DNA of 44,613 bases from sequence record NC_027383.1. One strand, given 5' to 3'. The notes beneath the pieces were generated by a model, which had not been told where the DNA came from, ran no database searches, and saw only the letters and a program-made list of their open reading frames with translations. Source of the stretch: Escherichia phage YD-2008.s. Each line of letters opens with the position of its first letter. The first letter of the stretch is position 1. The translations under genes were made by a program, and so were the position numbers. Below are positions 1 to 44,613 of this stretch, piece after piece.

Positions 1-1
1 G

Positions 2-523
2 AACGTTCGCCCGGATGGTAAGAAAGCGCTCAAGATAGTCCGCACGAAGGCGAAGCATGACCCAACCTTCGACGAGGAGCGCGACGACCCGAACGCGGCG
101 GGGTGGTGGCTTAAAATTGAGTTGCCGTCGGGGCGCATCATGAGTTATCCGGGCATCGCGCTGTCTGTCACGACCGAGATCGACGAAGACACCGGCAAGA
201 AGCGCACCAGCACCCGCATTAAATACCAGGGCGAGAATCAGACGACGCGTCAATGGGGGTTCCAGTACACCTACGGCGGCAAACTGACAGAGAACATCGT
301 GCAGGCGCTGTGTCGCGATATCCTCGCATGGTCCATGCCGGGTGTTGAAGCTGCTGGATATGAGATCGTACTGTCCGTACACGATGAACTGATCACCGAA
401 GTGCCGGATACTGACGACTACACGACCGAGGAGCTTTGCGCGCTGATGTGCGACCTGCCTATTTGGGCGAAAGGCTTCCCACTTGCCGCGGAAGGCGATT
501 GTATGTATCGATACAGGAAGTAA
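2..523 (+). CDS. DNA polymerase, family A (Pol I/T7-like), C-terminal fragment; 5' part lies at 42859..44613
   Basis: Frame open from base 2 with no start upstream; translation contains ...YEIVLSVHDELITEVPD... consistent with family A motif C; stop TAA 521-523. Confidence 0.7.
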   Translation, partial: NVRPDGKKALKIVRTKAKHDPTFDEERDDPNAAGWWLKIELPSGRIMSYPGIALSVTTEIDEDTGKKRTSTRIKYQGENQTTRQWGFQYTYGGKLTENIVQALCRDILAWSMPGVEAAGYEIVLSVHDELITEVPDTDDYTTEELCALMCDLPIWAKGFPLAAEGDCMYRYRK

Positions 524-527
524 GATT

Positions 528-719
528 ATGAAAGCAGAAATGAGCATTATGCGCGCTGGCGCGGCGGAAAACGACGAGATTCGAATCGTCATTAGACTGG
601 AACGTGGCAAGACCATTACGGCACTTGTCACGCCTGAAAACCTGGCGCTGGCGCTAACCGGGCGATCGGATATACCGGTAGACCTTCGTCTGCGTAACGT
701 GGAATTGCAAACTAAATGA
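528..719 (+). CDS. hypothetical small protein (63 aa)
   Basis: Track ORF 483..719 trimmed to ATG 528, which is preceded by AGGAAG; stop overlaps next gene start. Confidence 0.4.
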   Translation: MKAEMSIMRAGAAENDEIRIVIRLERGKTITALVTPENLALALTGRSDIPVDLRLRNVELQTK

Positions 720-994
720 CACCCGAGGGCAAGATTCAAAGTCACCTTATGAAGCTGGTGAAAGCCGTCGGCGGATTCTGCCGCAAAGTGGCCTGGGAGG
801 GGCGCGCAGGTGCGCCCGATCTGATTATCATCATCAACGGCAAGATAGTTTTCGTCGAAGTGAAGCGCCCTGGCGGCAAACCGAAGCCGCACCAGGTACG
901 AGAACATGAGCGAATGGCCCGCCGCGGTGCGGACGTTCGCGTCATCGACAACATAGCCGACTGTGATTTATTGGTTGCTGAATTGGTCGCGTAG
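716..994 (+). CDS. VRR-NUC-like nuclease (PD-(D/E)xK fold), putative
   Basis: 92 aa; ...GAPDLIIIINGKIVFVEVKRPGG... gives a D-x(n)-E-x-K signature; overlaps upstream stop (operon coupling). Confidence 0.55.
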   Translation: MTPEGKIQSHLMKLVKAVGGFCRKVAWEGRAGAPDLIIIINGKIVFVEVKRPGGKPKPHQVREHERMARRGADVRVIDNIADCDLLVAELVA

Positions 995-6921: not shown

Positions 6922-9093
6922 TCATTTCTTCAGCGCCGCGATCTCGGCCTCCATAGCCTCGATCTTCTGCATCAACACTTGCACAACGTGCATGGTGTCC
7001 AGTAACAGCGGGGTAGTATCCAGTTCTTTCTGCGTTACGTCAGGTGTGTCACTGGTCAGTCCAGAGTATGTCCGGGTCTTGACGTAAAGACTATCCACAA
7101 CTTCCGCTTGTTGTGCAACGAGGCCGCGGCGTTGACGACCTTGCGTGTCGTTATTGTACACAAACGTGTGGAACCTTAACGCCTTGATATTACTCCACGC
7201 TTTATCAACGGTTGTAGGCGTGATGTCATGTTTCATATTGGCATCAGACACAGCACTTGTGACGAACTGGTAGTTGCCGGACGTACCTGATGATGCCGGG
7301 GCACCGTCTGCGGTAAAAGAAAAGGTTCGTTCGGTTACACCTGCGTCCTGTAGCACTAGCTGGTGACCACGGGTTGTCGCGTTACCACCAATCTGTCTGA
7401 ACGAATACGACAACGTTTCGTAGTTTACAGCGGTTCCAATTTTATAGGTCGACTTGATCATGCCCCCATTCACGGTGACACCGGATACTGGTGACGTAGT
7501 GTCTGCGTTTTCAACACTCCACGACGTATTGGCCGCTACGAATCCACCGGATGCACGGATCACCCAGACGCCTACGAAGTTACGGCCCATAATTTCATCG
7601 GTAGATCTTCCGTAGATAGGGTTTGACTGCGATGCGTCAACCACGAGGGTATTAAAGCGTCCGGATACTAAAGGTACAGTAGTTTCCGGAATTGCAACAC
7701 CTGCTCCGGCAGGGAATAGGTCGTTGTTTGTTTTAAATGCACCTTCAGTGATATCACTGAATATCTGAGCGTATGTCGATGCAGAATAACCAGCAACACT
7801 GCCAGAGATATTAGGTGCTGCTGATTCAAAAATCTGACCATTTGTGGAAGAAGTACCGCCATCACCACGACCATACAAGCCGGGTATTGAGTTAACTTGT
7901 ACACCGTTACGGTCGGGTACGCGAAACGTTGTCGTACCATTACCGAGCGAGTATTTACCGCGTTTTGCTGGGTCTGCCAGCCAGTCGGCGTCACTGATAG
8001 GTGAGAGCATCTGAGCATAAGCCCAAAGTTCAGGCCAGTCAGCGCGGTTAAGAAGCTGCCCGTCTGAGACGACTTCATAAGGCTGAATATATGCGCGACT
8101 ATCACGCAGGTGGAAGTCGCCGACACCGTAGTTCATCACGCCATTCATTGTTGGGCCAACTGTGCCCGTGTTAATCATGTTCTGCACCCAGCGCTTAGTA
8201 ACGGCGTCGTAGTCGTTAACTGGGTCGCCAGCAAGCGGCGTGGCCCCATCCGGGCGAACGTTAAGCCAGGCTTGCGGTTTGTCGGTGAGTCCTGCCAGGT
8301 TGCCGGATTTGGTTAGCAGGTCATCCACGTTTACGCTTTTCGCCCACTCCTCGGCCTCGTTACGGTATCCCAGCGCGGCATCACGGGCGGCTTGCGCATC
8401 AGTCTTCGCTGTATTAGCCTCGTCGCGAATAACGCCGGTGTCAGTCTTGATCTGGTTCGTTTGGTCTTTGATCGCCTGCGTATCAGCCTTAATCTGGGCA
8501 GTCTGCGTCTTTATGGTATTAGTGGCGTCGTGGATCGCCTGCGTATCGGCCTTGATTTGGTTGGTCTGCGTCTTGATGGTATTGGCATCGTTCTTGAAGC
8601 CTTCGGCCTCATTGCGAAATCCTTGCGCTGCTGCTTCAGACGCGGCGGCTTGTTGTTGTAGGTTGCGCATTTCAACGGGGTCGATCTGCTTCATCAATTG
8701 CGACAGGTAGCCCCATGACATACCCTGCATAACTTGCCCGTTGGGCAGCGTAACGGTGATCTCTTCAGCGTCGCCGAAGATTGCACGCCAGTTGTTTTCA
8801 TCCGCAATCATCAAGCGCAATGCTTTCTGTGCCTGGACTGTTACGCCCATCGTCGCCAGTGACATGGTATCGCGCGCAACGCCATCCCAGGCAAGGCCGG
8901 TTGCCGTGGGGCCGTCGAACGGCAGCACCAGCGTAAGCGCGGTGTCGCTTTCGACGGACGCGATAGCAACAGTGTAAGGGACTTGCCCCACCACCAGCGT
9001 TAAGAAGTCGCCAGCTTTAAACGCGGTGAACGTCGTGCCGACACCGACTACCGCCTTGCTGTTATTCGTTACGGATAGTGTACCCGCTGCCAT
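6922..9093 (-). CDS. tail fibre protein with C-terminal intramolecular chaperone (peptidase S74-like) domain
   Basis: 723 aa; 21-aa tandem coiled-coil repeats (NTIKTQTNQIKADTQAI...); C-terminal ~105 aa starts with an S-D-x-x-x-K motif (SDANMKHDI) and ends in a coiled coil. Confidence 0.65.
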   Translation of the reverse strand: MAAGTLSVTNNSKAVVGVGTTFTAFKAGDFLTLVVGQVPYTVAIASVESDTALTLVLPFDGPTATGLAWDGVARDTMSLATMGVTVQAQKALRLMIADENNWRAIFGDAEEITVTLPNGQVMQGMSWGYLSQLMKQIDPVEMRNLQQQAAASEAAAQGFRNEAEGFKNDANTIKTQTNQIKADTQAIHDATNTIKTQTAQIKADTQAIKDQTNQIKTDTGVIRDEANTAKTDAQAARDAALGYRNEAEEWAKSVNVDDLLTKSGNLAGLTDKPQAWLNVRPDGATPLAGDPVNDYDAVTKRWVQNMINTGTVGPTMNGVMNYGVGDFHLRDSRAYIQPYEVVSDGQLLNRADWPELWAYAQMLSPISDADWLADPAKRGKYSLGNGTTTFRVPDRNGVQVNSIPGLYGRGDGGTSSTNGQIFESAAPNISGSVAGYSASTYAQIFSDITEGAFKTNNDLFPAGAGVAIPETTVPLVSGRFNTLVVDASQSNPIYGRSTDEIMGRNFVGVWVIRASGGFVAANTSWSVENADTTSPVSGVTVNGGMIKSTYKIGTAVNYETLSYSFRQIGGNATTRGHQLVLQDAGVTERTFSFTADGAPASSGTSGNYQFVTSAVSDANMKHDITPTTVDKAWSNIKALRFHTFVYNNDTQGRQRRGLVAQQAEVVDSLYVKTRTYSGLTSDTPDVTQKELDTTPLLLDTMHVVQVLMQKIEAMEAEIAALKK
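8405..8600. repeat. ~63-bp tandem coding repeats inside the tail fibre gene
   Basis: GATCGCCTGCGTATC(A/G)GCCTT(A/G)AT...GTCTGCGTCTT(T/G)ATGGTATT repeated about three times. Confidence 0.6.
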
Positions 9094-9392: not shown

Positions 9393-9411
9393 GCCCCGAA
9401 AGGGGCTTTTC
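9392..9411. terminator. bidirectional intrinsic terminator
   Basis: AGCCCC gaaa GGGGCT followed by TTTT; sits between convergent ORFs. Confidence 0.6.
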
Positions 9412-10081
9412 ATATCCCATCCACGTTAATTGCGGTCAGCGCAACGCCGGTGTTTTGATACCCAGCGATGCTACCAGACCCAGCCTGCGTAGCGACTGCG
9501 TTAATGCGAGTTCCGCTTCCGTTGTCGTAAGCCCCCGCCCCTGCCGAGATCTGGATAATCTGCGGCTGCCCCTGTACGAATATCTGAATAAGAGTAGCCC
9601 CCATTAACATAGGTGATACCGCGTACTTACCCGGCAGCGTCTGGTCTATGTTGATACCGCCGTTATTGCCGAAGCTGCCAACTGTGACTAAATCGGTGAG
9701 TACCTTGCTTTCGTTGGTGAGTATGCAAGTCCCGCTGGCGTCCCAAATAGCAAACCCCCATCTCGGCAGCGGTTGCGGGAATCGCGCGAATATGTACGCC
9801 GTGACGGTAAAATGTGGGTTATTCTGCCCCTGAATGCTTCCGCTAAATATAATCCGGTTACCTGATCGTGACGCCGCCAGGACGCAACGGTTATCTGACC
9901 GCATAAACACCATCGCCGGATAGTTCGCGGGAATATCCACGCCCCCGCTTGCGGTTTTATAATCAGCACCGGCGTCCACTGAATTTGCCGACACCTTAGC
10001 GTAGAGGACGAACGGCGTTGAGTTTGGCGTGACGAATGGGTTGCCGTTGTTGTTATCGATTAACGCGCCGAAGTTTGCCAT
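9410..10081 (-). CDS. tail-associated protein, function unknown (223 aa)
   Basis: GGAGAA RBS; lies between the J-like gene and the tail fibre; Gly/Ser/Thr/Asn-rich like fibre components. Confidence 0.5.
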   Translation of the reverse strand: MANFGALIDNNNGNPFVTPNSTPFVLYAKVSANSVDAGADYKTASGGVDIPANYPAMVFMRSDNRCVLAASRSGNRIIFSGSIQGQNNPHFTVTAYIFARFPQPLPRWGFAIWDASGTCILTNESKVLTDLVTVGSFGNNGGINIDQTLPGKYAVSPMLMGATLIQIFVQGQPQIIQISAGAGAYDNGSGTRINAVATQAGSGSIAGYQNTGVALTAINVDGI

Positions 10082-16609: not shown

Positions 16610-19252
16610 TCATCGTTTGTAAAGTACACCACCCGGTTTCGTTGCCTTCACGATCTCGGCCTTCACCGCCTCGGTGATTTGCTTGCCGAACGCCTGCGCG
16701 GTACGGGGGTCCGGCCCGCTGACACTGGTATCCGTTTTACCGGTCCCCGTGTAAACGTTAGTCGTCACGACCATCCCCCCACCTGCGCCAGACGCGGCAA
16801 CGCCCAGTTTCCCGTCCGGCCCGCGCTTCAGTGGCATGATGGCCTCGGGTCCAGCCTCACCCATCAACCCAGCGCCCTTAGCGAACGCCTGGACGCCATA
16901 ACTGAAAAAGGTAGGCTGGCTTACCACTTTCCCGGAATAGGCCGCGAGATTGCCTCCTGCGTACGCTCCGCCGTCCGCATTCTTGGTGAGGCCCGAGAAG
17001 ATAGCGCCGAACAATCCGTTTTTGCCGCCGTCGCCACCGAAAGCGCTAACGATCGACTTGAAAGCCTGCGAGGTAGCCAGCTTGATTAATTCGCTAAGGA
17101 TGGACTTAACCATATCCTTTGCGTTCAGCTTGCCCGTCTCGAAAAACTCGTTCATCGTGTCTTGCATAGCGCTGAACGTGAATTTTGTGAGCGACATCAT
17201 CTGCGTATATCCGTTACCCATATCATCCACACTATCCTTAAGCCCGCGGCTGAAGCCATCCCATAGCGAGGCGTTAGCCCCGGTCTGTGCTTCCTGCACT
17301 TCACGCAGCTTAGACACCGCCTTGTCTATATCGGTATCGTTAGCGCCAACCCTCTTCAGGCGGTCAATTAGCTGCAATTCTTCACGCAGGTTTGCCGCTT
17401 CGCGAGTGGAAAGCGCATAGCCCGCAGCGGTGGCTTTTAGCTCGGCGTTCTGGTTCTTAACGAAGGCATCGATCTGCGCATGCGCCTTAACCTGCTTCTC
17501 TTTCGCGTCCAGCAATTTGGCTTCTTCGACGATCTGCTCGCGCACTTCCTTCACGCGTCCGAATTCGACCATCTGCTGCTTTTCTGCTGCCGTTAGCGCT
17601 CTTTTTTTGCTCGCAGCAATTAACTGCTCATTGTCAGCGATCAGCTTGTTTAATGCTGCTTGAGCGCGTTGCGTGCGGGTCTGCGTAGACGCGTTGGCTT
17701 CGATCTGCTTGCCGGATTCTCGAAGCTGGGCCAGTTCGCTCCGTGCAACTTCCAGCATTTTCATACCGGCATCCACGCGAACAGCCGCGGCCTTCTTCGG
17801 GGCCGGGTCTTTGTAGCGCTCGTTGACCTGCTTCACCGCCTCGGCTAGTTCTTTCTCATCAATAACGCCGCGCTTATTCAGCAAATTGAGGCGGGCGATC
17901 TCGTCTGCACGCTTTTTCGCGTTGGTTGCGTACTCCTTCTCGAACGCAGCGCGGTCGCGGGCGGTGCGGTTAGCCTCCTCGTTCGCCTTTGCGGATTCGT
18001 CTGCGGCGCGGGCGTTGTCTCGCTCCGCACGGTTACGCAGGGTGAGCGACGCCACCACTTTTTCCTGGGCGACCAGTTCGCTGTAAAGCATGTTAATACG
18101 CGCTTTCTGCGCTTCGGTCATAACTCCACCGGCAGCGTTTACCGCTTTCATCTCGGCATAGTAAGCCGTGGTCATGCGCTGCAATGATTCACGCGCTTTC
18201 ATCTCGGACTCATTCGAGGACTGCGCGCGGCCCACATCCAGGATGGCATCCCACATCGATTTAGCTGCCGATGTGACGACGTTCATCGACCGCTCAAGCG
18301 TGCCCATGTTTGACTTGATCTCATTGGTCATGCTGGTGAACGACGCAGCGGCGGTTTTGTTAGCCAACGCAACTGCGTCTGTCTCACGACCCGCATCAAC
18401 CAGCGACTGCACCTGCTGGATCTGCGCTTCGTTTACGACGTGATACTTATCCGCCAGTGCGCGCAAGCCGCCCACGGGGTCAGTGGAGAGCTTCGCCACC
18501 GCCGCCACCACATCCTCGATCGGCTGGCTGGACACCTTCGCAAAGTCATTAACTACCTTAGCCAATGCGCCGAAGTCACCACCCGCTTTCACCCCCGCCG
18601 CCGCCAGCGCCTGGATTGTGTCACGCGTCTTGCGAAATGACCCGCCCATGCGCTCGGCGTTCTCGGACAGCACAAGGATCTGGTTAGCTGTCAGGCCTGA
18701 AATATTACCGGACAGCGCCAGCGTCTTATTAAGCGCCGCCACCTGGTTCTCTGCGCGGGTCGTAATTGCCACCCCTACGCCGAGCGTTGCCGTTAATGCC
18801 GCGATGCCGATCCCTAATGGGCCGAGTGTGCCAACGACATAACGCAGCGTGTTTCCCAGTCCGCCAAACGCCCCAGTAAGCTGCGGTAACTGCTGAAGCA
18901 TAACGCGGTGCACCGGCATACCCATCTCAAGCGTAACCGCGATATCCTGTAACTGGAATGCGGCGTTCCGCGATGCGAATCCCAGGTTTTTGGTCGACAT
19001 GCCTAATCGGCTGGCGAGTCGCTCCTGTTTCGTCATGCCGTCGGCGGCGCGCTGCGATTCAGTCGCTAACTTTTCCATTCCGCCAGCAGCGTCGCCAGTA
19101 ACCTTTTTCGACTTGCCAAGTGTGTCGTTTAATTTTTTTACTTTCTGTTCTGTGTTCTCGGATTTCTGCGCAAATGTGTCCAGCACAGTATTAGCCGTTT
19201 TAATTTGCGCGACGTCCGCCTTGAGCGTGATGCCCGCTGCCTGATCTGCCAT
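16610..19252 (-). CDS. tail tape measure protein
   Basis: 880 aa; long Ala/Gln/Lys/Glu-rich coiled-coil protein with Gly-rich C-terminus, downstream of the G/GT chaperone. Confidence 0.8.
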   Translation of the reverse strand: MADQAAGITLKADVAQIKTANTVLDTFAQKSENTEQKVKKLNDTLGKSKKVTGDAAGGMEKLATESQRAADGMTKQERLASRLGMSTKNLGFASRNAAFQLQDIAVTLEMGMPVHRVMLQQLPQLTGAFGGLGNTLRYVVGTLGPLGIGIAALTATLGVGVAITTRAENQVAALNKTLALSGNISGLTANQILVLSENAERMGGSFRKTRDTIQALAAAGVKAGGDFGALAKVVNDFAKVSSQPIEDVVAAVAKLSTDPVGGLRALADKYHVVNEAQIQQVQSLVDAGRETDAVALANKTAAASFTSMTNEIKSNMGTLERSMNVVTSAAKSMWDAILDVGRAQSSNESEMKARESLQRMTTAYYAEMKAVNAAGGVMTEAQKARINMLYSELVAQEKVVASLTLRNRAERDNARAADESAKANEEANRTARDRAAFEKEYATNAKKRADEIARLNLLNKRGVIDEKELAEAVKQVNERYKDPAPKKAAAVRVDAGMKMLEVARSELAQLRESGKQIEANASTQTRTQRAQAALNKLIADNEQLIAASKKRALTAAEKQQMVEFGRVKEVREQIVEEAKLLDAKEKQVKAHAQIDAFVKNQNAELKATAAGYALSTREAANLREELQLIDRLKRVGANDTDIDKAVSKLREVQEAQTGANASLWDGFSRGLKDSVDDMGNGYTQMMSLTKFTFSAMQDTMNEFFETGKLNAKDMVKSILSELIKLATSQAFKSIVSAFGGDGGKNGLFGAIFSGLTKNADGGAYAGGNLAAYSGKVVSQPTFFSYGVQAFAKGAGLMGEAGPEAIMPLKRGPDGKLGVAASGAGGGMVVTTNVYTGTGKTDTSVSGPDPRTAQAFGKQITEAVKAEIVKATKPGGVLYKR

Positions 19253-19267: not shown

Positions 19268-19650
19268 TTTATGCAGTTGCCGTCGGTCATTGTATCAGCG
19301 AATTTAAAACAAACCTTATTCAGTCTCAGACGAGGGGGGCCATTGACCCCCGTCTAGTCTGAAAGACTGGGCTTTGTCCCGCCTGTCCCGATCGGCTAAA
19401 ACCCGCGGCAGCACTGGCTGGGACAGGGGTGCTGTCCCGCTTTGTCCCGCCCAATTCTGCCCCGCTTTTTGTCCCGTTTGTTTTATGCAGAAAAACCGCA
19501 TAGCCATTCACTTTTGAGGGGTGGGACAGATCGGGACAGCACCCCCGTCCCGCTTTTAGTTTATGCAATGAAAGTGAGTATATATGCGGTTTAATGGTGG
19601 CGGGACAAAACGGGACGTCCCGCCTGTCCCGCTTCGTTATGCGGGGTTCT
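19268..19650. repeat. iteron-rich structured noncoding element A
   Basis: ~380 bp without a credible ORF; at least 12 GTCCCGC/GCGGGAC heptamers; hairpin AGACGAGGGGG...CCCCCGTCT; palindromes GGGACAGGGGTGCTGTCCC and CGGGACGTCCCG; core 19307..19480 is homologous to 35962..36135. Confidence 0.6.
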
Positions 19651-30832: not shown

Positions 30833-31383
30833 TAATCACCCTGACCTTTGCCGGTAGGTTCCACAACGACGTCGCCGTTATCATCTTCGTCGTCGTCCAG
30901 CGGTACATCGTCGCGGACGCCGTGGTTTGCTTTAAGCAGGAACGTAGCGAAGCCCGCCGCGATGGTTACGCCACCAGCTTCCATCAGGAAAGTTTTCTGC
31001 AACTCCATAGCATCCGCCATCGCCTCGGCGAACTCCTCATGTGCGCGCGCCCAGCGATACAGGCAAGCTACGCCCACACCGATTTCCGCGGCAAATCGAC
31101 CAAAGGTTGGCATTTTGTTGCGGGGGATTACTTGCGCAGCGCCTTTATCGGAGTAGTTGACCTGCCAGGCGTCGGCGTCGGCAAAATAGCGGCGAAGCTG
31201 GTCGCAGTAAACGGATCGGTAGTCCGTAGGGCGTCCACATTTGCCGCCTTTACGGCGCTTTCCGTACTCGATTTCAGGTCCGAGATTGGTATGCTCGGTT
31301 TGCTCGCCTGGTTTACGGCGCGGGGTAACTGCTACTCGTCCGTCCAGTTTGGCGCGTCGGCCCTTAACTTTGATTTCTGCCAT
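30832..31383 (-). CDS. terminase small subunit (putative)
   Basis: Track ORF trimmed to ATG 31383; HTH-like segment PTFGRFAAEIGVGVACLYRWARA; acidic C-terminus; TAATG overlap with large subunit. Confidence 0.55.
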   Translation of the reverse strand: MAEIKVKGRRAKLDGRVAVTPRRKPGEQTEHTNLGPEIEYGKRRKGGKCGRPTDYRSVYCDQLRRYFADADAWQVNYSDKGAAQVIPRNKMPTFGRFAAEIGVGVACLYRWARAHEEFAEAMADAMELQKTFLMEAGGVTIAAGFATFLLKANHGVRDDVPLDDDEDDNGDVVVEPTGKGQGD

Positions 31384-31513
31384 GATATATGCCCTTTTGT
31401 TCATATGCGCCGACCATCGGCAACATAGGAGACGGCCCTGCCATCTAACGGGGATTATAACAGGCACAAAAAAGCCCACCAAATCGGCAGGCTGGGCTGG
31501 TTACGGGTCGCCG

Positions 31514-32656
31514 TTACTTCAACATTTCCGGGCTAATGGTTAAGCGCGCTACTTCGCCGTAGTTGGCGCTGTAGGTAATGACGTTGGCACTGCGACCGCT
31601 CATCCAGCCGCCGCGGCTGGCGTAGGCATCTTTCGCTGCGAGCGTCCGGTGCTGTTCAACAATCATGTTGCGAGACTCGACAATCTTCTGGTGGTGCAAA
31701 TGGCCTACGTGCGCGTAGCTATATTCGCTCGACCCGAACGCCTGTCTGAATTTAGCGATCATAACCTGCTCGATAACATCGAATCGCGCTTTGTGCCCGT
31801 GGTGGAAAAATAGCGTGGTCTTACCGTGCTGCACCATTTTGTAGACGTCCGGGGACGTGTCCACATCGACGCGCGGCTCGTTCTCATACAGGGTATTGAA
31901 CATCTCAGCAAGCCAAATCATGCCCGACTCGTCATGATTACCCTGGACGATTAGCAGTTTTACTTTGTGGTGTTTTTGCAGCGCCAGGTCAACCACGTTG
32001 CGCACCATGCGAATCATATAGCGGACCAACTTCTGGTATCGTGTGTCGGCGTCCAGTACGTGACCGCTTGCTGGTGTGACGGCGTCGAGGCTATCAAAGT
32101 GGGCCGTATCACCGAGGATATTGATAACGGCAGTGCCTGCGTCCGGTGCGCGGGCGAAGGCTTCGACAAACCAGCGGTAGAACAGGTCTTCGGCGATCGC
32201 CATATCCCAGTCTTCGCCAGTCTCCTCGCCCCATGCCAACATGCCCAGGTGGAAGTCTGACACCGTGTACAGGTTGAGCAAGTCGAGCGCCTGGATCGGT
32301 ACTGGCGGTGCGCTTACCGGTGCTGCCGGTGTGATTTCGCTGTTCATACCCTCGACAACAGCGTGCATGGCTTCGAGTTGGCGCTCCTTGTCCTGCTCAG
32401 TGATGACCCACGACATGACCTCTTCGCCATTGCCGCGCACCAGGGCCGATACGCGCTTAACGCCGAAGCCATCGGCAACGCGCTGGCGGATTACGGCGTC
32501 GTTGCCGTGCCCAATGCCTTTTTTCGATAGGCGGGCTTTCCGCATATAGACATTGCGTAGGGCAATCCCGTATTTCTTCGCAATCTCTTTAACCGTAGTC
32601 CCTGCCTGAATTTCTGCGATCAATTGCTCATCGGTAATTTTAGTTTGCGGGTGCAT
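31514..32656 (-). CDS. HTH domain fused to calcineurin-like metallophosphoesterase
   Basis: 380 aa; N-terminal HTH (TVKEIAKKYGIALRNVYMRKARL); phosphoesterase motifs GDTAH, GNHDE, GHLHH. Confidence 0.6.
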   Translation of the reverse strand: MHPQTKITDEQLIAEIQAGTTVKEIAKKYGIALRNVYMRKARLSKKGIGHGNDAVIRQRVADGFGVKRVSALVRGNGEEVMSWVITEQDKERQLEAMHAVVEGMNSEITPAAPVSAPPVPIQALDLLNLYTVSDFHLGMLAWGEETGEDWDMAIAEDLFYRWFVEAFARAPDAGTAVINILGDTAHFDSLDAVTPASGHVLDADTRYQKLVRYMIRMVRNVVDLALQKHHKVKLLIVQGNHDESGMIWLAEMFNTLYENEPRVDVDTSPDVYKMVQHGKTTLFFHHGHKARFDVIEQVMIAKFRQAFGSSEYSYAHVGHLHHQKIVESRNMIVEQHRTLAAKDAYASRGGWMSGRSANVITYSANYGEVARLTISPEMLK

Positions 32657-32724
32657 ATTTAATTAATTCCTGATTAGTGTACCGCGGACAATATATCATG
32701 GGACTTATTGAGGCGGGCAATAAA

Positions 32725-32747
32725 AAGCCCGGAATTAACCGGGCTTG
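32725..32747 (-). terminator. intrinsic terminator after the lysis cassette
   Basis: Minus strand AGCCCGG ttaatt CCGGGCT followed by TTTTTATT. Confidence 0.5.
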
Positions 32748-32752
32748 ATTGT

Positions 32753-32914
32753 TTACTCTTCTGGCTCTGCAGTCGGTGGTGGGCTTGGCAGCTTCGCATC
32801 GAAGACCCCAGCGTGGTTGATAGTGTCCGCGATGATAGCGCGAGCGCCCGGATCTTCGGTTTTAGCCAGTGCGGCAAGCGCGTCCGCATTATGATCAAGA
32901 ATGCTTTTTAACAT
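32753..32914 (-). CDS. possible small ORF (53 aa) downstream of the endolysin
   Basis: GAGGT RBS before ATG 32914; below track cutoff; the track ORF 32674..32898 in another frame looks spurious. Confidence 0.3.
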   Translation of the reverse strand: MLKSILDHNADALAALAKTEDPGARAIIADTINHAGVFDAKLPSPPPTAEPEE

Positions 32915-32930
32915 ACTGTGTTACCTCGTA

Positions 32931-33422
32931 TTATGCAGCGTTACGACCGATTCGCTCGGCAACGTCCCACTGCTTACCATCAAACAACGCCTGTCTGCCG
33001 ATTGCACGGCGTACCAGACCCTTAAGCACTTCGCCGCCTTGCTTGCGAAACTGCGGCAGCGTAGCACGGACCTTCGCCCAGTCGCCCAACCGTACCGCAT
33101 CATCGAAATCATTCGCGACGTCATCCGGTACGATCGGACCAGGACCGGCGTTGATTACCAGGTCCACCAGCGCGTCGAATTGCGCCTGGTTAATGCTCGG
33201 ATGTGCGTATTTGTTAACCCAGTCCTCAGCATACGCCACATCGCGCTTGAGCAGTGCCAGCGCTTCCTCGCGGGTAATGCTTCGAGGCGGATTAGTGCCG
33301 GTATGACCATAACCCCAGGTGTACAGGCCGCGGGCCTGCTCTTTCTTGGTCGCGAAATACGGCACCGGGCTGAAAGCCTCCCATGCTGCCGTAAATCGTA
33401 GACCGTTGTCACTGAATCGCAT
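32931..33422 (-). CDS. endolysin, lysozyme-like (GH24-type)
   Basis: 163 aa; ...GLYTWGYGHTG... lysozyme-like motif; adjacent to holin-like membrane proteins. Confidence 0.65.
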   Translation of the reverse strand: MRFSDNGLRFTAAWEAFSPVPYFATKKEQARGLYTWGYGHTGTNPPRSITREEALALLKRDVAYAEDWVNKYAHPSINQAQFDALVDLVINAGPGPIVPDDVANDFDDAVRLGDWAKVRATLPQFRKQGGEVLKGLVRRAIGRQALFDGKQWDVAERIGRNAA

Positions 33423-33654
33423 GTTTTACCCCATTCAAAACAGCATTACGCAGTGTGCGCAACGCAAACAGCCAGATTAACGCGGTCCAGGTGGTGTCAG
33501 ATACGTCTCCTGTTTGCAGCAATCCGATAAAACAGACCATTGCCGTTAACAGATACAGCACCCGACCGAAAATGCCATCCTGGACGGACGGCGCATACAC
33601 GTTAAACAGGGACGAAGCCCCGATGATAACAAACAACAGGACGGAGATAATCAT
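33409..33654 (-). CDS. holin/antiholin-like membrane protein
   Basis: 81 aa with 2-3 predicted transmembrane segments; overlaps the endolysin start. Confidence 0.45.
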   Translation of the reverse strand: MIISVLLFVIIGASSLFNVYAPSVQDGIFGRVLYLLTAMVCFIGLLQTGDVSDTTWTALIWLFALRTLRNAVLNGVKHAIQ

Positions 33655-33941
33655 TTTGCACCCCCCGGAAGTCGGAACGACGCAATAGTCTCCCTGATCC
33701 GGTCGGCGATTGGCATCCAGAAGATGGCAGTTACGAAGCCCAAACCGGCAACAGTGCGCTCACCGGACAAACCAGACCACTCGGCAATAGCTGGCGCACC
33801 AAATATGGCACACAGGAAGCCAACTACGACATATAAAACGAAGTTCAACGGCCCTTTCGTTGCCTCGCCATGAATGCGTGCGCCTACGAAGCCACCAGCA
33901 AGACACGCAAGGGCGAATAACCACTCGTTTAGCTTATCCAT
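33651..33941 (-). CDS. holin (putative)
   Basis: 96 aa; multiple hydrophobic helices, charged C-terminus; immediately upstream of antiholin/endolysin. Confidence 0.5.
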   Translation of the reverse strand: MDKLNEWLFALACLAGGFVGARIHGEATKGPLNFVLYVVVGFLCAIFGAPAIAEWSGLSGERTVAGLGFVTAIFWMPIADRIRETIASFRLPGGAK

Positions 33942-33993
33942 AAAAAAGTCCCAGTAAGTTTCAGCTCACTGGGACTATATCACGCTTGCATAA

Positions 33994-34281
33994 TTAATCG
34001 AAAATGGACCACTTGCCGACGCCTTTCCATTCCCATCCTGCCGATCGGACGACCTCGAATGTTCTACCGCCTATCATATCCCGATACCACAGCCACCACA
34101 TGCGCAACCTGGTAGGGTGATCCGTGATTCCACGGCGCTTGTAGATCTCGAACGTCATGCGGGTAATGCTGGCTGCTTCCACGGCGGGCCAGACTACGAA
34201 CATCAGGACGCCCAACAGCACCGCGGTAAGCAGGCACAGCCCGCAGATCAAACCAAACCAATAAATCACATCGTGTAACAT
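33994..34281 (-). CDS. membrane protein, function unknown
   Basis: Track ORF trimmed to ATG 34281; N-terminal transmembrane helix WFGLICGLCLLTAVLLGVLMFVVW; Trp/Arg-rich C-terminus. Confidence 0.35.
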   Translation of the reverse strand: MLHDVIYWFGLICGLCLLTAVLLGVLMFVVWPAVEAASITRMTFEIYKRRGITDHPTRLRMWWLWYRDMIGGRTFEVVRSAGWEWKGVGKWSIFD

Positions 34282-34402
34282 CGAATTGCCCCTTCCGGTT
34301 TGCCAATATGGCGCGCCCATGCACGCGCCACGAAGTAATTGCGAAATACCCGACCGCCTATCTCAAAGCGGTTGTGCTGAAGCATATCGCGGATCGTCGC
34401 AC

Positions 34403-35122
34403 TCATTTCAGAATCACCGAGCACGGGTCGATGGCTTTCATGCTGCCGTCCCGTTCTACCCGGATGAATCCAACGCCGTATTCCTGCGCATGGCGCTGTG
34501 CATTCGTCACGGCATCAAAGCGATTTACGATTTGGTGTGCGGCGCGGCCCATCTTCGCTTGCACCTGGTGGGAGTCGTAGGTCGCATAGGCGGGCTGCGA
34601 CTTGCGGAACTCCACACGCGTCTTCTGCGCCACGTCATGCGTTACGCGGTTAACTGCGTCCGCTATGGCGCTCGCTCGCTCATGCGGCGGGCGGTCACGA
34701 AGGCAGTATTTTCGGCCCACTCGCTCGTAGTTGACCAGCCCGAAGTAAGTCATACCTGCTACGCCATCCTTGCGGGATTGCATACGCAGGCCATGAAGAC
34801 CGACATATTCAACGATCCACATACTACCGTCGCGAATATCACGCAGCACATCTCCGCGCTCGATATCGTGAGTGAGTACGTCGAAGAACTGCTGCAGCGT
34901 GTGTTTCTGCGCCCGCCACACCCGATTGCCTGCCGCGTTTTGCAGGCGGACGTAGGAATCCAGGGTCTGGATCGGCTTCAGGATTTTGCCATCTGCTTTA
35001 CGGCGGAATAGTAATTTCATTTGCTCAGTCTCCGATAGTTCTTTTTCAGGGTAAATTGGCTGATAGTGTGGCGTGATTTGGTTTTTGGGTGCATGAGCGT
35101 AACGCTTCCGTTCCCTTCCCAC
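34403..35122 (-). CDS. hypothetical protein (start uncertain: 35122 or 35020)
   Basis: Long ORF with balanced composition on the same strand as its neighbours. Confidence 0.45.
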   Translation of the reverse strand: MGRERKRYAHAPKNQITPHYQPIYPEKELSETEQMKLLFRRKADGKILKPIQTLDSYVRLQNAAGNRVWRAQKHTLQQFFDVLTHDIERGDVLRDIRDGSMWIVEYVGLHGLRMQSRKDGVAGMTYFGLVNYERVGRKYCLRDRPPHERASAIADAVNRVTHDVAQKTRVEFRKSQPAYATYDSHQVQAKMGRAAHQIVNRFDAVTNAQRHAQEYGVGFIRVERDGSMKAIDPCSVILK

Positions 35123-35165
35123 ACCACGAGATAAATCAATCCGGTGGCCTTGCTCTTGACTCGGA

Positions 35166-35435
35166 TCATTTGCTCAGTCTCCAGTGTTTGCCTACCCGCT
35201 CAACGGCGTGCTTCCGGCGGATAGTAATACGTATGCCGATTGGTTGCAAGGACGTTTTTACAGCAAGCCCATGCTCCCTGGCGAACTGGTGCAGATAGCG
35301 AGTCTGCGTTAGTGGCTTCACATCGTCGCGATAGCTCCAGAACACAGAATCGCCCTCAATCGCATTCTGCGCCCATATTCGTATGCAATGCAGTGGAATA
35401 TGCCACGAAAGCTGTTTCGCGCGTCTGCGGTCCAT
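35166..35435 (-). CDS. hypothetical protein (89 aa)
   Basis: Basic small protein in the minus-strand operon. Confidence 0.4.
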   Translation of the reverse strand: MDRRRAKQLSWHIPLHCIRIWAQNAIEGDSVFWSYRDDVKPLTQTRYLHQFAREHGLAVKTSLQPIGIRITIRRKHAVERVGKHWRLSK

Positions 35436-35444
35436 TTTGGCCCC

Positions 35445-35750
35445 TTATTTCGCAAGCTGGGCGAATAGTTCGCGCTGGGCTTTAATCCGGGCGACGTTTG
35501 CCACTGCCGTCTCGCCGATCCCGAAGCGATACGCCAGGCGCTCACGGGAGAATGCCTGCGCGAATGTATGGATGGCCTTACGCAACGGCCTCAGTTCGTC
35601 CATGCTGGCGCCCATACCGTAAAGCGCGCTGCGGAGTGATTGATGCGCCAGTATCGCGACCTGAAGCGCCGAGTCTACGTTGCCGTTTAGTGCCTTCGCT
35701 TCGTCCAGCTTTGCCACGGCCAGGGAGTAATTCCAGATAATCGCTTTCAT
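35445..35750 (-). CDS. hypothetical protein (101 aa)
   Basis: First gene downstream of a minus-strand promoter; helical, Ala-rich. Confidence 0.45.
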   Translation of the reverse strand: MKAIIWNYSLAVAKLDEAKALNGNVDSALQVAILAHQSLRSALYGMGASMDELRPLRKAIHTFAQAFSRERLAYRFGIGETAVANVARIKAQRELFAQLAK

Positions 35751-35778
35751 TGTTCAGTCCTCTTGTTGGTGTGCAACC

Positions 35779-35807
35779 AATATAGCTGGGTGCGGGCACG
35801 AATGCAA
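35779..35807 (-). promoter_or_regulatory. sigma70-like promoter TTGCAT-N17-TATATT (minus strand) with two GCAACCAATAT boxes
   Basis: -35 = complement of 35802-35807, -10 = complement of 35779-35784; boxes overlap both hexamers. Confidence 0.5.
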
Positions 35808-35961
35808 CCAATATTAATCACGCGCATGAAAAAGTCGATCGCTATCCGTTGCAACTGCAAACTGCATTTCCCGCCCGCCATTCTGCACCTCGCATTGGTT
35901 GCCTAGTTCATCGACGACCGCAATCCGCAACATGCTGCCGTGTATTTTGCAGTCCTGGATT

Positions 35962-36135
35962 TTATGCAGTCTCAGACGAGGGGGTGACAGACCCCCCGTC
36001 TAGTCTGAAAGACTGGGGTGCTGTCCCGCTGTCCCGCTCCTCGCCAGGCCGCGTCATCCGGGGCGGGACAGGGGTGCTGTCCCGCTTTGTCCCGCCTCCT
36101 GTTTGTCCCGCTTTTTGTCCCGCTTACTTTATGCA
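35962..36135. repeat. iteron-rich structured noncoding element B (homologue of 19307..19480)
   Basis: Same hairpin stem AGACGAGGGGG/CCCCCGTCT with a different loop; GGGACAGGGGTGCTGTCCCGCTTTGTCCCGCC shared block; about 7 GTCCCGC copies; bounded by TTATGCAG on both sides; AT-rich stretch follows. Confidence 0.6.
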
Positions 36136-36229
36136 GTTTTATTGCATAACTATTCATTATATTTACATTACACGGCAACCAATGCGACTAACTAAAAACA
36201 CGCAAAACGGCAACCAATGCGCGCAAAAT

Positions 36230-38500
36230 TTAATCTTTCAGGTCATCATCGGTCGCCGAAAGCGTAATGGGGATACCCGATTTGATAACTAAATTCGACG
36301 ACCCATAGATGGCCCCGGTGTGCGGATCTGTATAGAAACCAATCACGCCGCGCTCTACCATATCGTCAATTGCCTTCGTCGATGTGCCACCTTTCGCGAG
36401 TCCCGCCTGGCGGACGATTGCCGATTTGCTGAATCCGGTATGGTCCGGGTTATCTTCCATCAGCTTCTCCAGTGCTGCATAAAGCACTTTCTCTTTTTCG
36501 GTGCGCGGTCCGGCGGTGTTCTCTTCCTTAACTGCGGCTTTTCCTGCGGCCTTCGCCTGTTCTATAGCGAACGGTGCCAGGGCGACCGGTACGAGGTATA
36601 AAGTCTCGTCGCGCGGGGTGGACGCAATTGGTTTGACGTCCCAACCGGCAACTACGTCTCCGAAGTCCGGACCGGTGCTGGTGGACTGGTGCGACGCGAA
36701 CGCTTCTGACTTGCGGAGATCTATCGCCACCTTGCACTTGAGCAGGACGAAGCCACGCGGCGCTTGCTTGATGCCGTTACGTGATTTTTCGTGGTACAGG
36801 TTAAGTTGTCCCGGCTGGTTGTCGTCCGGCTGTTCCAGGAAGAAAGCGGAATCGACAGCGCCATGAAGCGCACCGGACCCGCGCGGGGATCTGCTGCCGT
36901 TTGCACCCTTCGCCGGGTGGTGGATGACGCCCGCACTGCCACCTGTATTTTCCGCAATGGCTTTCAGCGCTTTGACCACTTCACCCATATCGCTGGCGTT
37001 GTTCTCGTCAAACGGTTTAGCCTCGGCGGACCGCAGCGCAACAGTCTGGTTGAGTGAGTCGAACGCCACCAGGCCAACCGGTTCGCCGTTAGCGGTGCGG
37101 TTGATAAAGCTGATAACTTCGCGCAAGCCTGATTTGCTGGTGATATCCCAGCCGCGTGACTGCAGGTCTATAATGTGCAGCTTGTCCAGGTCGTGCTCAT
37201 ATTTAATCTGCAATGCTTCTTTACGCTGGTTGGAGGCTTCGCCACCTTCCGCGTCGAAATAGAAGCAATGAGACTGGACGACCTTCGCACCGCCGAACGG
37301 AATACCCGCGGCAACCGCACCCATCTGCCCCAGCACATAGAATGACTTGCCTATGTTCGACTCACCCGCCATGTACCAGGTCGATTTGAAGTTAATCAGA
37401 CCTTCGATGATCGGGTCGTGCTTACTGAATAGTGCGACCGGCTCGTTATCCAGGTCCGCATCGGTGCACACGCCGTATTCTTCGCCGTCTCCAACCGCAT
37501 CAACAATATGCTCATATAAGGATTCGACTTCCTCGTCGTCCAGCCCTGGAAGGATGGCGGCGATTTGCTTACGGGACATATTGTGTGGCTCGACGTTCAG
37601 GTGGTCCGGGATCCCGATAAGACGTAGCGCCAGGTGCTGGTGTCTATTCAGTTCCGAGCAACACTCGTTGCCGGTGTGCATACACTTGAAACGGATCTCG
37701 CCATCCTTAACCATGATAGCCGTCGACCCTTCGCCGCTGTGCAGATGTTCGTTCGGGCACGGCACTTCATAACCGCGACCGGAAGATAACTCCTCGAATC
37801 CTGCCTGGAAGCACCAGTCCAGAATACCGTCTGCCACTGCGTCGTCGCCCTGGGTAAGCTCGCGGCGTACTTCCTCTTTTTCCACCCCCAGCTTATCCGC
37901 CAGGCGGAGCAGACGCCGCACATTGGCACGTTTGCCGTAGTGGCACTTAATAACTGACTGCTGGTGTGGCAGGTACATCAGGCGGTTTGTGTCTTTCGTG
38001 CAATCGTCGAAGTCCACATCTGACAGACCAAGTTGGTGTAATAGCGCATACTGGACACGGCCCAGGTCTTCAGCCGGGACAGGCTTGTCAGTGAGTACCA
38101 GGAATCGAGCGCAACGCGTGCCGCCTTTCAGTGGGTGACGGTCGCCGGTGGTTGTGTGAAAAACGTGTTCAAGACCCGCGTCGATGAAAGCCTTACGGCA
38201 GCGGCGCAAGGTGCGAGTGTCGGTGCGGTCGATATCGAAGAACAGGATCGAGCGGTCCACCGCACTGGTCTTGCGGCGAAGGCCGTCACTGGTATATGCC
38301 ACGATGCCATCGGCCTTACGCTTGCGGCGCGCATACTCGGCTTTATCTTCCGTCTTATTGATATGCACCGAGGAGATTTCTTTCGCATCTTTGATAAATT
38401 CGAAAAATTCATCGGTGGTCATCTGGAAGTTTTCCGCCCTGGCTTTTTCGCCTTTTTTAGCGGGTCTTGTTACGGCGAATTTAATTAAACTCATGGTCAT
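36230..38500 (-). CDS. DNA primase/helicase (primase domain + P-loop NTPase)
   Basis: 756 aa; Walker A AGESNIGKS and Walker B-like VGLVAFDS in the central region; size and layout of phage primase-helicases. Confidence 0.75.
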   Translation of the reverse strand: MTMSLIKFAVTRPAKKGEKARAENFQMTTDEFFEFIKDAKEISSVHINKTEDKAEYARRKRKADGIVAYTSDGLRRKTSAVDRSILFFDIDRTDTRTLRRCRKAFIDAGLEHVFHTTTGDRHPLKGGTRCARFLVLTDKPVPAEDLGRVQYALLHQLGLSDVDFDDCTKDTNRLMYLPHQQSVIKCHYGKRANVRRLLRLADKLGVEKEEVRRELTQGDDAVADGILDWCFQAGFEELSSGRGYEVPCPNEHLHSGEGSTAIMVKDGEIRFKCMHTGNECCSELNRHQHLALRLIGIPDHLNVEPHNMSRKQIAAILPGLDDEEVESLYEHIVDAVGDGEEYGVCTDADLDNEPVALFSKHDPIIEGLINFKSTWYMAGESNIGKSFYVLGQMGAVAAGIPFGGAKVVQSHCFYFDAEGGEASNQRKEALQIKYEHDLDKLHIIDLQSRGWDITSKSGLREVISFINRTANGEPVGLVAFDSLNQTVALRSAEAKPFDENNASDMGEVVKALKAIAENTGGSAGVIHHPAKGANGSRSPRGSGALHGAVDSAFFLEQPDDNQPGQLNLYHEKSRNGIKQAPRGFVLLKCKVAIDLRKSEAFASHQSTSTGPDFGDVVAGWDVKPIASTPRDETLYLVPVALAPFAIEQAKAAGKAAVKEENTAGPRTEKEKVLYAALEKLMEDNPDHTGFSKSAIVRQAGLAKGGTSTKAIDDMVERGVIGFYTDPHTGAIYGSSNLVIKSGIPITLSATDDDLKD

Positions 38501-38504
38501 AGCC

Positions 38505-38834
38505 TTATTTGGAAGTTTTATTATTGCGTACCCAGGAGCGCACAGTGCTCTGGTTGATTCCGGTTAGCTCGGCGATCATAGCCCAGGATTTACCTTCCTC
38601 ACGTAGACGGATAACCTGCTTTTTGTATTCTTCCATTTCTTCATTGTGCTTTTGCAGCTTGCTGGCTGCCGTACCGTTGAGTAATTCCAGCTTCGCGCGC
38701 AATTCTTTTTCGGTGAGTCGTAGGCGTTCGATTTCAAATAGCACCGCCCCCACGGCATCGGTATACGCCCAGGACCGGCTTGTTTCACTGCAAACAGTCT
38801 TAGTTAACATTTCGATTGCGTCGTTGATATTCAT
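38505..38834 (-). CDS. HTH DNA-binding protein, candidate transcriptional regulator
   Basis: 109 aa; C-terminal HTH SWAMIAELTGINQSTVRSWVRN; coiled-coil middle; first gene after the divergent promoter region. Confidence 0.5.
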   Translation of the reverse strand: MNINDAIEMLTKTVCSETSRSWAYTDAVGAVLFEIERLRLTEKELRAKLELLNGTAASKLQKHNEEMEEYKKQVIRLREEGKSWAMIAELTGINQSTVRSWVRNNKTSK

Positions 38835-38864
38835 TTTTCTGTCCCCGGTTGGTTAATGACCAAC

Positions 38865-38894
38865 GAAACTACACCTAAAACCGCAGGGTGTCAA
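38865..38894 (-). promoter_or_regulatory. candidate minus-strand promoter TTGACA-N17/18-TAGTTT
   Basis: Perfect -35 TTGACA (complement of 38889-38894), weaker -10; upstream of the HTH gene. Confidence 0.35.
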
Positions 38895-38965
38895 CTCCTT
38901 TGGGATATTGAAACGGGCGCGCACGCGTGTAATAATAATCCCCGTCTCATTGTCTCTTATTGGTT

Positions 38966-39003
38966 AGCGCCGTCGCATTTTGCCTCGGCGCTTTTTTTTT
39001 TTT
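38966..39003 (+). terminator. GC hairpin followed by a T12 tract (terminator-like, or UP element of the next promoter)
   Basis: GCGCCGTCGC atttt GCCTCGGCGC then 12 consecutive T (38992-39003). Confidence 0.35.
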
Positions 39004-39014
39004 GAAATTAGTTG

Positions 39015-39043
39015 TTGACTCCCTTCTGCAACCAATCTAATAT
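39015..39043 (+). promoter_or_regulatory. sigma70-like early promoter TTGACT-N17-TAATAT with GCAACCAAT box in the spacer
   Basis: -35 39015-39020, -10 39038-39043; GGAGAT RBS and ATG 39104 downstream. Confidence 0.5.
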
Positions 39044-42691: not shown

Positions 42692-42862
42692 ATGCGCATT
42701 AAAGCCAGCGAAGTAAAAGTCGGAATGCAGGTATGGTCTAAACTGCTGGGCGAGTATTTCACCGTTGCCGAGATTCGCAACAACGGCGAGGAGATAACCC
42801 TTTCCGACGGTATCTTCTCCATGATCGGCAGCGCCGACGCCGTAGTGAGGATTAAGCAATGA
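42692..42862 (+). CDS. possible small protein (56 aa) upstream of the polymerase
   Basis: ATG 42692; stop TGA overlaps the polymerase ATG; below track cutoff. Confidence 0.3.
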   Translation: MRIKASEVKVGMQVWSKLLGEYFTVAEIRNNGEEITLSDGIFSMIGSADAVVRIKQ

Positions 42863-44613
42863 AAGACTTCGAACGCCTGTTTCTCGATACCGAGACATTT
42901 AGCGGGGTAGACCTGAAGAAAGTTGGCGCATACGCCTACGCAGAGCACCCGACAACCGAGATTATGATTTGCACCTACGCCATCGACGAGGGCCGCGTGC
43001 AGACATGGGATTGCACCGAGTCCCCAACAATGCCGCGTGAACTGCGCAAGGCGCTCCGCAGGGTATCCCGCAAGAAAGCAAAAATAGTGATGGCTAACGG
43101 CCTCCTGTTTGACCGCCTGGTCATTCGCGAGAAGTGGGGCATTGACCTGCCAGTGTGCCAGATCGAAGACACCATGATTATGGCCTTTCGACACGCGCTG
43201 CCGGGTGGCCTCGATATGCAGTGCCAGGTGTTGGGCGTTGACGCAGAGCACGCGAAGGATAAGGCGGGCAAGGCGCTGATCAAACGATTCTGTAAGCCAA
43301 CCCCTAAGACCTACAAAATCCGCCGCTACACGCGCGAGACGCACCCCGAGGAGTGGGCTAAATTCCTGCGCTATGCCGCGTTGGATATCATCGCTATGAG
43401 GGAAGTCTATTGGCGCATACCGGACTGGGGTAACACGCCGAAGGAAGACGAAATCCTGCTTATCGACCAGTTGATCAATGACCGCGGCTTCTATGTGGAC
43501 GTTGACCTGGCGCGCGCTGCGATCAAAGCGGTACAGGCGCATAAAGAAGAATTGAAGGAAGAAGCCTGGGAGCGCTTCGGCGGTAAGCTGACAGGCAATG
43601 ACTTCCTGCCAGCGCTGCGGGACCTCGCGCCTGCGTTCACAATCCACAACGCGCAGAAATCCACGCTTAACGACCTGCTGGAAGATCCAGACTTCCCCGA
43701 AGAGGGCAAAGTGCTTATCGAGATGCGCCTCGGTGCGTCATCCACGGCATCGACTAAGTACAATCCGCTCGTTAATGGCCTATCCGCCGATGGTCGCCGC
43801 CGTGGGTGTCTTCAGTATGGTGGGGCAAAGCGCACGCTACGCTGGGCCGGTAAAGGCTTCCAGCCGCAAAACCTGGCGCGTGGCGAGTATAGCGACGACC
43901 ACGAAGGGAAGATTAAACGCCGTGAAGGCGAGAGCGACGTCGCGTTTTGGGTGCGGTCGCACATGCTCACCAACGGCATCAACTCCCTGTTACGTGGGAC
44001 AGCGCACTGGGCGTATGACATATCGAAGCTAACGGCCTCGACCGTTCGCGGGTGCATTATTCCAGCGAAGGGTAAGAAGTTTGTCGTAGCGGACTATTCT
44101 AACGTGGAAGGGCGTGGCCTCGCCTGGATCGCTGGTGAGAAAACCGCGCTAATGGTGTTTAGGGCCGGTCGCGACATTTATTGTGAGACTGCCGGTAAGA
44201 TGTTCGGCCTTGACCCGGAATACATTAAAGCCAACCGCAAAGACCTACGCCAGATTGGTAAGGCGTGTGAGTTGGGACTTGGCTATGGCGGCGGCGTGGC
44301 TGCGTTCTTGCAGTTCGCTAAAAACCTGGGCCTCGACCTTTACGCGATGGCGGACGTAATGAAGGGCACATTCCCCGATCACATTTGGGCAGCGGCTAAA
44401 CGGGGTTATGAGTACGCCCGCATTAACGAAGCGAAGCGACCGCCGAAGCCTGGCAAGAAGGACGAGCGCCCGACTTACATACTGCCGAAAAACGTATGGC
44501 TTACGTGTGATGCGATTAAACGCATGTGGCGAGAGGCGCACCCGAAGACGGTAGCCTTTTGGGCCGAGCTTGAGGACGCGGTGTTGTGTGCAATCCGCAA
44601 TCCTGGCAAAGCG
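42859..44613 (+). CDS. DNA polymerase, family A (Pol I/T7-like), N-terminal 585 aa; runs off the window end
   Basis: 3'-5' exonuclease motif LFLDTETFS, polymerase motif A VVADYSNVEGR, motif B RQIGKACELGLGYGGG; no stop before base 44613. Confidence 0.85.
   Translation, partial: MKDFERLFLDTETFSGVDLKKVGAYAYAEHPTTEIMICTYAIDEGRVQTWDCTESPTMPRELRKALRRVSRKKAKIVMANGLLFDRLVIREKWGIDLPVCQIEDTMIMAFRHALPGGLDMQCQVLGVDAEHAKDKAGKALIKRFCKPTPKTYKIRRYTRETHPEEWAKFLRYAALDIIAMREVYWRIPDWGNTPKEDEILLIDQLINDRGFYVDVDLARAAIKAVQAHKEELKEEAWERFGGKLTGNDFLPALRDLAPAFTIHNAQKSTLNDLLEDPDFPEEGKVLIEMRLGASSTASTKYNPLVNGLSADGRRRGCLQYGGAKRTLRWAGKGFQPQNLARGEYSDDHEGKIKRREGESDVAFWVRSHMLTNGINSLLRGTAHWAYDISKLTASTVRGCIIPAKGKKFVVADYSNVEGRGLAWIAGEKTALMVFRAGRDIYCETAGKMFGLDPEYIKANRKDLRQIGKACELGLGYGGGVAAFLQFAKNLGLDLYAMADVMKGTFPDHIWAAAKRGYEYARINEAKRPPKPGKKDERPTYILPKNVWLTCDAIKRMWREAHPKTVAFWAELEDAVLCAIRNPGKA

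Follow-up and report, generated by a model that had tools for sequence, protein, structure and literature searches.

A Dhillonvirus genome record opened inside its DNA polymerase gene and 14 bases short at the join

Polymerase fragments at the two ends of the window

We analyzed the complete 44,613-nucleotide record of Escherichia phage YD-2008.s (NC_027383.1, one strand), here called the window, both ends of which lie in coding sequence for a polymerase. On the plus strand, translation gave 585 stop-free codons from an ATG at 42859 to the last base, 44613, with a codon boundary at the very end, in agreement with a preliminary description that had placed 585 N-terminal codons without a stop at exactly this position. 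At the window start, the plus-strand frame from base 2 provides 173 open codons and closes with a TAA stop at 521-523, while the base-1 frame is closed at codon 7 and the base-3 frame at codon 12. The base-2 frame had been described as the only open one at the window start; this holds for the plus strand but not overall, as an antisense frame in register with 1-523 is also free of stops. Such shadow frames are usual in G+C-rich genes, and we found no coding support for this one; the G+C content of the window is 54.6%. The long antisense stop-free frames over the polymerase, 1-523 and 42646-43647 (both minus strand, including a 333-aa open reading frame (ORF)), are shadow ORFs typical of G+C-rich coding DNA, with no support as genes. 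The features at and around the two ends are as follows.

42692..42862, plus strand: conserved 56-aa ORF, its stop overlapping the polymerase ATG (ATGA); same layout in relatives
42859..44613, plus strand: first 585 codons of the polymerase, running off the window end without a stop (Pfam DNA_pol_A, PHROG 17, Taq/Klenow alignment of motifs A and B)
42883-42903, plus strand: Exo I, LDTETFS, residues 9-15 (motif reading)
43093-43119, plus strand: Exo II, ANGLLFDRL, residues 79-87 (motif reading)
43372-43395, plus strand: Exo III, YAALDIIA, residues 172-179 (motif reading)
44092-44115, plus strand: motif A, DYSNVEGR, residues 412-419 of the restored chain (motif, Taq alignment)
44248-44289, plus strand: motif B, RQIGKACELGLGYG, residues 464-477 of the restored chain (motif, Taq alignment)
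44613..44613, plus strand: final base of the record, on the left of the join; in relatives, a further 14 bases precede the match to window base 1
1..1, plus strand: third base (G) of the fifth absent codon, GC|G, Ala590 of the restored protein (comparison with relatives)
2..523, plus strand: last 173 codons of the polymerase and the TAA stop at 521-523 (PHROG 7766, PHROG 17, Taq alignment of motif C)
374-391, plus strand: motif C, SVHDEL, residues 715-720 of the restored chain (motif, Taq alignment)
528-719, plus strand: 63-aa ORF downstream of the polymerase, PHROG 1222 (function unknown)
716-994, plus strand: VRR-NUC nuclease downstream of the polymerase

The gene order after the polymerase (528..994) is that of slur05 and other relatives, indicating that one operon runs off the window at its end and carries on at its start. 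The two frames had been said not to join directly, and base 44613 followed plainly by base 1 indeed reads ...NPGKA ERSPGW*, with a stop after 6 codons and 591 codons translated in all. Together, the fragments contribute 758 residues (585 + 173), or 763 after restoration of five absent codons, close to the ~760-aa polymerase anticipated earlier. The gene occupies 1755 + 523 = 2278 bases in the window versus 2292 bases annotated in Escherichia phage EC115 and in slur05.

One family A DNA polymerase

Profile searches assigned both fragments to the same protein. The PHROG 17 ‘DNA polymerase’ profile is covered at positions 671-1116 by the piece at the window end (E value 5.5e-103) and at 1122-1232 by the piece at the window start. 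PHROG 7766 spans the join, its positions 5-40 corresponding to the last residues of the end piece and 50-185 to the start piece (E value 1e-61 for the start piece). For Pfam DNA_pol_A (PF00476), the score rose from 48.1 bits with the N-terminal fragment alone to 60 bits with the restored protein, which passes the curated cutoff of 34.3 bits. Alignment to Klentaq (Taq; E value 3.8e-9) matched residues 395-478 to motifs A and B and residues 700-727 to motif C. Motifs A (DYSxxE), B (RxxxKxxxxxxxYG) and C (HDE) occur in order in the restored chain, the first two in the window-end piece and the third in the window-start piece; motif C and the end of the frame at 523 had already been noted. Compared with the EC115 polymerase (annotated as DNA polymerase I, URO83351.1), the restored protein is identical at 756 of 763 positions without gaps. 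The alignment of the joined translation to family A polymerases that the preliminary description had proposed thus yielded a single protein, a family A DNA polymerase in which the two fragments follow one another without overlap. Its motifs and their conservation in more than 150 isolated lytic phages suggest polymerase activity, which we infer on this basis.

Motifs A, B and C can be aligned with those of the large fragment of bacterial Pol I enzymes (Taq, Klenow, Bst), but the distance from motif B to motif C is ~220 residues in the window polymerase versus ~95 in Taq. The join lies within this motif B-C expansion (~130 residues relative to Taq), as does a deletion in the relative vB_EcoS-EE09 described below. 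Toward the N terminus, exonuclease-like motifs Exo I (DxE), Exo II (Nx2-3[FY]D) and Exo III (Yx3D) appear in the expected order, an assignment made by motif reading alone; the polymerase had no match to a Pfam exonuclease family, the putative proofreading (DnaQ-like) 3'-5' exonuclease domain being too diverged.

Fourteen bases are absent at the join

To relate the join to homologous loci, we used the last and first 250 bases of the window, plainly joined, as a query. It matched 152 phage records, nearly all labeled Dhillonvirus or Escherichia phage, and 151 of them over at least 80% of its length. Among full-length rows sampled from the 152 records at even ranking steps, the record span exceeded the query span by 14 bases in every case (59/59). 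We also aligned locally 20 fetched stretches that cross the site, taken from phage records and contigs of ENA, IMG/VR and Logan, with some phages represented in two collections. Each of the 20 showed a gap of 14 bases located precisely at polymerase nucleotide 1755; for Escherichia phage vB_EcoD_Pubbukkers, the gap was split 10 + 4 around a nearby substitution. The relatives examined across the join (59 of 59 sampled records and the 20 fetched stretches) all carry exactly 14 bases between window bases 44613 and 1, TACTGGGC(T/G/C)GGCGC. In EC115 and slur05, identity is 60/60 on either flank, with TACTGGGCTGGCGC in between. A pattern search of natural sequences that allowed N{0,30} between the two ends recovered the 14-base form only, with neither a direct join nor any other gap size.

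Translated, the 14 bases read Y W A G with two bases left over, which open an Ala codon. Window base 1 completes that codon; the resulting 15 bases make up five codons (Y W A G A) and account for the resumption of the frame at base 2. Variation is confined to the third position of the Ala codon GCN (T, G or C) and the one nearby Pubbukkers substitution; this synonymous pattern, Pubbukkers aside, identifies the stretch as coding, conserved and under selection. Ten contigs found through the neighboring VRR-NUC protein all have a called polymerase of 763 aa (10/10). The two pieces are therefore parts of one gene, and the circle is complete in the record but for exactly 14 bases. The preliminary description had left two options, one or a few bases missing at the junction or more sequence between the fragments; comparison with all relatives examined bears out the first, at exactly 14 bases, and goes against the second, since none of the 59 sampled records or 20 fetched stretches has a longer intervening sequence at this site.

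These data also bear on whether translation in the phage might yield the polymerase in two polypeptide chains or pass over base 1 by a programmed +1 shift. Some other phages have family A polymerase genes that are split. In all relatives of the window, however, the gene is a single uninterrupted frame of 763 codons, and the residues absent here, YWAGA, are conserved in their protein with synonymous change only. The first possible start codon in the second piece would be a TTG at 122. Such an arrangement is effectively refuted by the comparison with relatives, and we consider it extremely improbable.

Genome comparison within Dhillonvirus

Both window ends match ~150 Dhillonvirus records in the phage collection at 87-99% identity, with a best local identity of 98.6% (megablast). 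The window sequence itself did not turn up in INPHARED (August 2025), and exact-pattern scans of IMG/VR, the JGI/ENA metagenome contigs and GTDB genomes retrieved other Dhillonviruses only. Local BLAST aligned the window collinearly to EC115 (ON210136.1/NC_073080.1) around its entire circle, apart from 14 EC115 bases at the join. Both arms of the alignment run down the EC115 numbering: window 1-31404 pairs with EC115 31137-1, and window 31405-44613 with EC115 44849-31152. At the join, this leaves just EC115 31138-31151 unpaired. The window thus represents a complete Dhillonvirus genome (HK578/SO-1-like E. coli siphovirus) in circularly permuted form, which confirms the earlier suggestion of a full genome record opened in the polymerase gene. 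EC115 has the neighboring genes of the polymerase in the same order, but its record is opened at the small terminase gene with the polymerase gene whole, whereas the window record begins and ends within that gene and is short of the 14 bases. In other Dhillonvirus records (152, including HK578, SO-1, slur05, JL1 and BASEL phages), the polymerase region has 87-94% BLAST identity with the 14-base gap counted against it; the 14 bases are present at the join in all that were sampled, and headful packaging and circular assemblies are reported for the group.

In total, 41,275 of 44,613 window bases (93%) align to EC115 at 82-97% identity. Modules that differ comprise 6932-8646, 9409-10011, the 63-aa ORF (528-719) and some short segments between 34.4 and 35.7 kb. 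The window is a distinct Dhillonvirus genome, mosaic relative to EC115, from which it differs in the tail-fiber region and in small early genes. A 723-aa ORF at 6922-9093 (minus strand) with a C-terminal Peptidase_S74 (endosialidase chaperone) domain is probably the tail fiber; much of it (6932-8646) and the nearby 9409-10011 have no BLAST match in EC115, the usual swap of a host-range module. Other window ORFs include a 474-aa helicase and a 476-aa DUF2800/PDDEXK protein, neither of which had an identical entry in the exact-protein index. Tandem and dispersed repeats rich in GAT/GAC/GAA at 39232-39410 and 42412-42617 encode acidic-basic low-complexity tails, in which D/E runs are followed by KPRK-type motifs. 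One set lies in the C terminus of an Enc34-type single-stranded DNA-binding protein (ORF 41830-42633) and the other inside a 170-aa ORF at 39104-39616. Rfam and tRNA scans of the whole window returned no match.

We also observed two related non-coding stretches, 19300-19640 and 35960-36160, with a common block of ~175 nt that is present at both matching places in EC115. The word TGTCCCGC occurs 13 times in the window against 2.2 expected (0 of 100 shuffles reached 13), and 12 of the 13 copies fall in these two stretches, which additionally have in common repeated TTATGCAG words and a GACGAGGGGG...CCCCCGTC hairpin. The first is located just upstream of the tape-measure ORF (16610-19252, minus strand) and the second just past the stop of a 756-aa AAA_25 (primase/helicase-like) ORF (36230-38500, minus strand). 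From their sequence, they look like candidate binding-site arrays for a phage regulator or origin iterons. Many independent Dhillonvirus assemblies in Logan end as contigs of 27.4-27.9 kb (for example, L015, L016, L017, L021 and L022), a length approximating the longer arc between the two repeat blocks, which are 16,646 bases apart on a circle of ~44.6 kb. K-mer assemblies of Dhillonvirus genomes seem to break at the two blocks and not at the polymerase site.

Polymerase variation in relatives

Three relatives have larger changes in the polymerase region. Pubbukkers (OK499988.1; L012:1508-2402) carries an in-frame insert of 299 codons after codon ~470, inside motif B, that is annotated as an intein; it is absent from the window and EC115 and is the sole insert seen in the genus. 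In Escherichia phage vB_EcoS-EE09 (OR756193.1; L010:2749-2782), 44 aa of the polymerase are deleted in frame (restored residues ~597-640, window ~20-151), beginning 11 codons after the window join. The deleted segment, within the motif B-C expansion, seems dispensable. Escherichia virus TH13 (MT446391.1, an UNVERIFIED record; L011:2945-4120) has a 589-bp tandem duplication over the polymerase 3' end and the genes that follow, probably another assembly or closure artifact, of an overlapping type. The Pubbukkers intein, TH13 duplication and EE09 deletion are all at other positions, and none coincides with the join.

Taken literally, the window sequence gives a frameshift and an early stop, as would result from a real 14-bp deletion in the phage. 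The circle would then join 44613 to 1 (GCAAAGCG directly followed by GAACGTTC), and the frameshifted polymerase would stop after 591 codons, in a defective genome or a population mutant. Some change is tolerated nearby, given that EE09 was isolated without the neighboring 44-aa segment, but that deletion is in frame, whereas the loss of 14 bases is out of frame and would leave a truncated protein without motif C, which bears a catalytic aspartate. The presence of the 14 bases in every relative checked, borders without microhomology and an exact coincidence with the record ends that would itself be very improbable further argue against a real deletion, to which we assign only a very slight chance.

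A different reading is that more than 14 bases originally separated the ends, with an intein, intron or homing-endonuclease insertion at codon 585-590 that interrupted the assembly and, like the 14 bases, dropped out of it. The Pubbukkers intein demonstrates that mobile inserts in this gene occur in the genus, and genus genome sizes of 41.8-46.0 kb would leave room for ~1 kb more. Codons 585-590 are, however, free of inserts in all relatives, the known insert is 115 codons away and the remainder of the EC115 circle is all accounted for. Moreover, the repeats that break k-mer assemblies are at ~19.4 kb and ~36.0 kb in the window and not at the join. An insertion lost in this way is therefore very unlikely on the strength of the relatives, albeit with precedent in the genus. 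No intein or other interruption of the polymerase was encountered at the break, where the window has 14 bases fewer than its homologs, not more.

Record ends, packaging and origin of the break

The preliminary description had proposed a search for terminal repeats, and this came back empty for the window ends: they have no exact overlap of 4 bases or longer, and comparing the first 1000 bases with the last 1000 gave no significant similarity. Sharing no repeat, the ends are not direct terminal repeats, nor are they cohesive. In circular maps of the relatives, the record ends are adjacent, 14 bases apart in EC115 and all others checked. The large terminase of the window belongs to Pfam Terminase_6N/6C; for the small terminase, we obtained sub-threshold hits only, to the P22 gp3 and Sf6 families. 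Genome announcements for Opt-212 (PMC9022532) and UDS3lw (PMC13348001) report circular assemblies of Dhillonvirus reads and a PhageTerm prediction of headful packaging. According to their record coordinates, Dhillonvirus records open at many different places. For a circularly permuted genome without a natural first base, the opening point of a record is arbitrary.

A linear record with both ends in one gene might alternatively reflect the physical ends of virion DNA, that is, a fixed-end genome whose polymerase gene becomes whole only after circularization or in concatemers. Against this stand the lack of terminal repeats or matching ends, the opening of genus records at many sites and the headful packaging and circular assemblies reported for relatives. 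In addition, joining the ends leaves the gene unrestored. We regard physical ends at these positions as having almost no probability.

Bases missing at closure of complete assemblies are a recognized assembly outcome, termed ‘gapped circularization’ in the assembler benchmark of Wick and Holt (PMC6966772, Fig. S5B). As in the window, a complete replicon is there contained in one contig with a few bases absent where the ends meet; the category was described for long-read assemblies of bacterial replicons. Applied to the window, virion DNA would be packaged headful and would consequently be circularly permuted and terminally redundant, giving reads that assemble to a circle without a natural start. 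This circle would have been cut at an arbitrary point during record making, 1755 bases into the DNA polymerase gene, and 14 bases at the contig ends would have been lost on opening, as in gapped circularization.

The loss is best attributed to assembly, end trimming or record handling and not to the phage, a step we infer from the chance of ~1 in 44,600 that a real deletion would fall at an arbitrary opening point, if the two were independent. One point weighs against an artifact. Short-read de Bruijn assemblers normally leave overlapping ends, not gapped ends, so that an extra trimming step or another kind of assembler must be assumed. No sequence reason for a break at the join site was found among the palindromes, microhomology and repeats examined. 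Reading of the sequence revealed no microhomology at the borders of the absent 14 bases, and a 12-base palindrome across the restored join, GCGAACGTTCGC, was rejected as the cause of the break, with 10 such palindromes in the genome and an estimated ~11 expected by chance. Overall, we assign a probability of roughly 0.93 to the window being a complete Dhillonvirus genome record that was opened in the polymerase gene and from which 14 bases were dropped at the join, as a record or assembly artifact and not as a matter of biology.

Implications for the record and the phage

The gap is a matter of data quality only, an ordinary property of the record and not of the phage. Annotated as it stands, the record yields two polymerase fragments or, once circularized, a frameshifted pseudogene, with the risk that a split or defective phage polymerase is wrongly inferred. 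The 14 bases should be put back to close it, and its start should be moved to the small terminase gene, the customary opening point for the genus. As predicted from the relatives, the polymerase gene of the real phage is almost certainly continuous over 2292 bases and encodes a 763-aa family A enzyme with a putative 3'-5' exonuclease domain. On phage biology or on family A polymerases, the finding adds nothing new.
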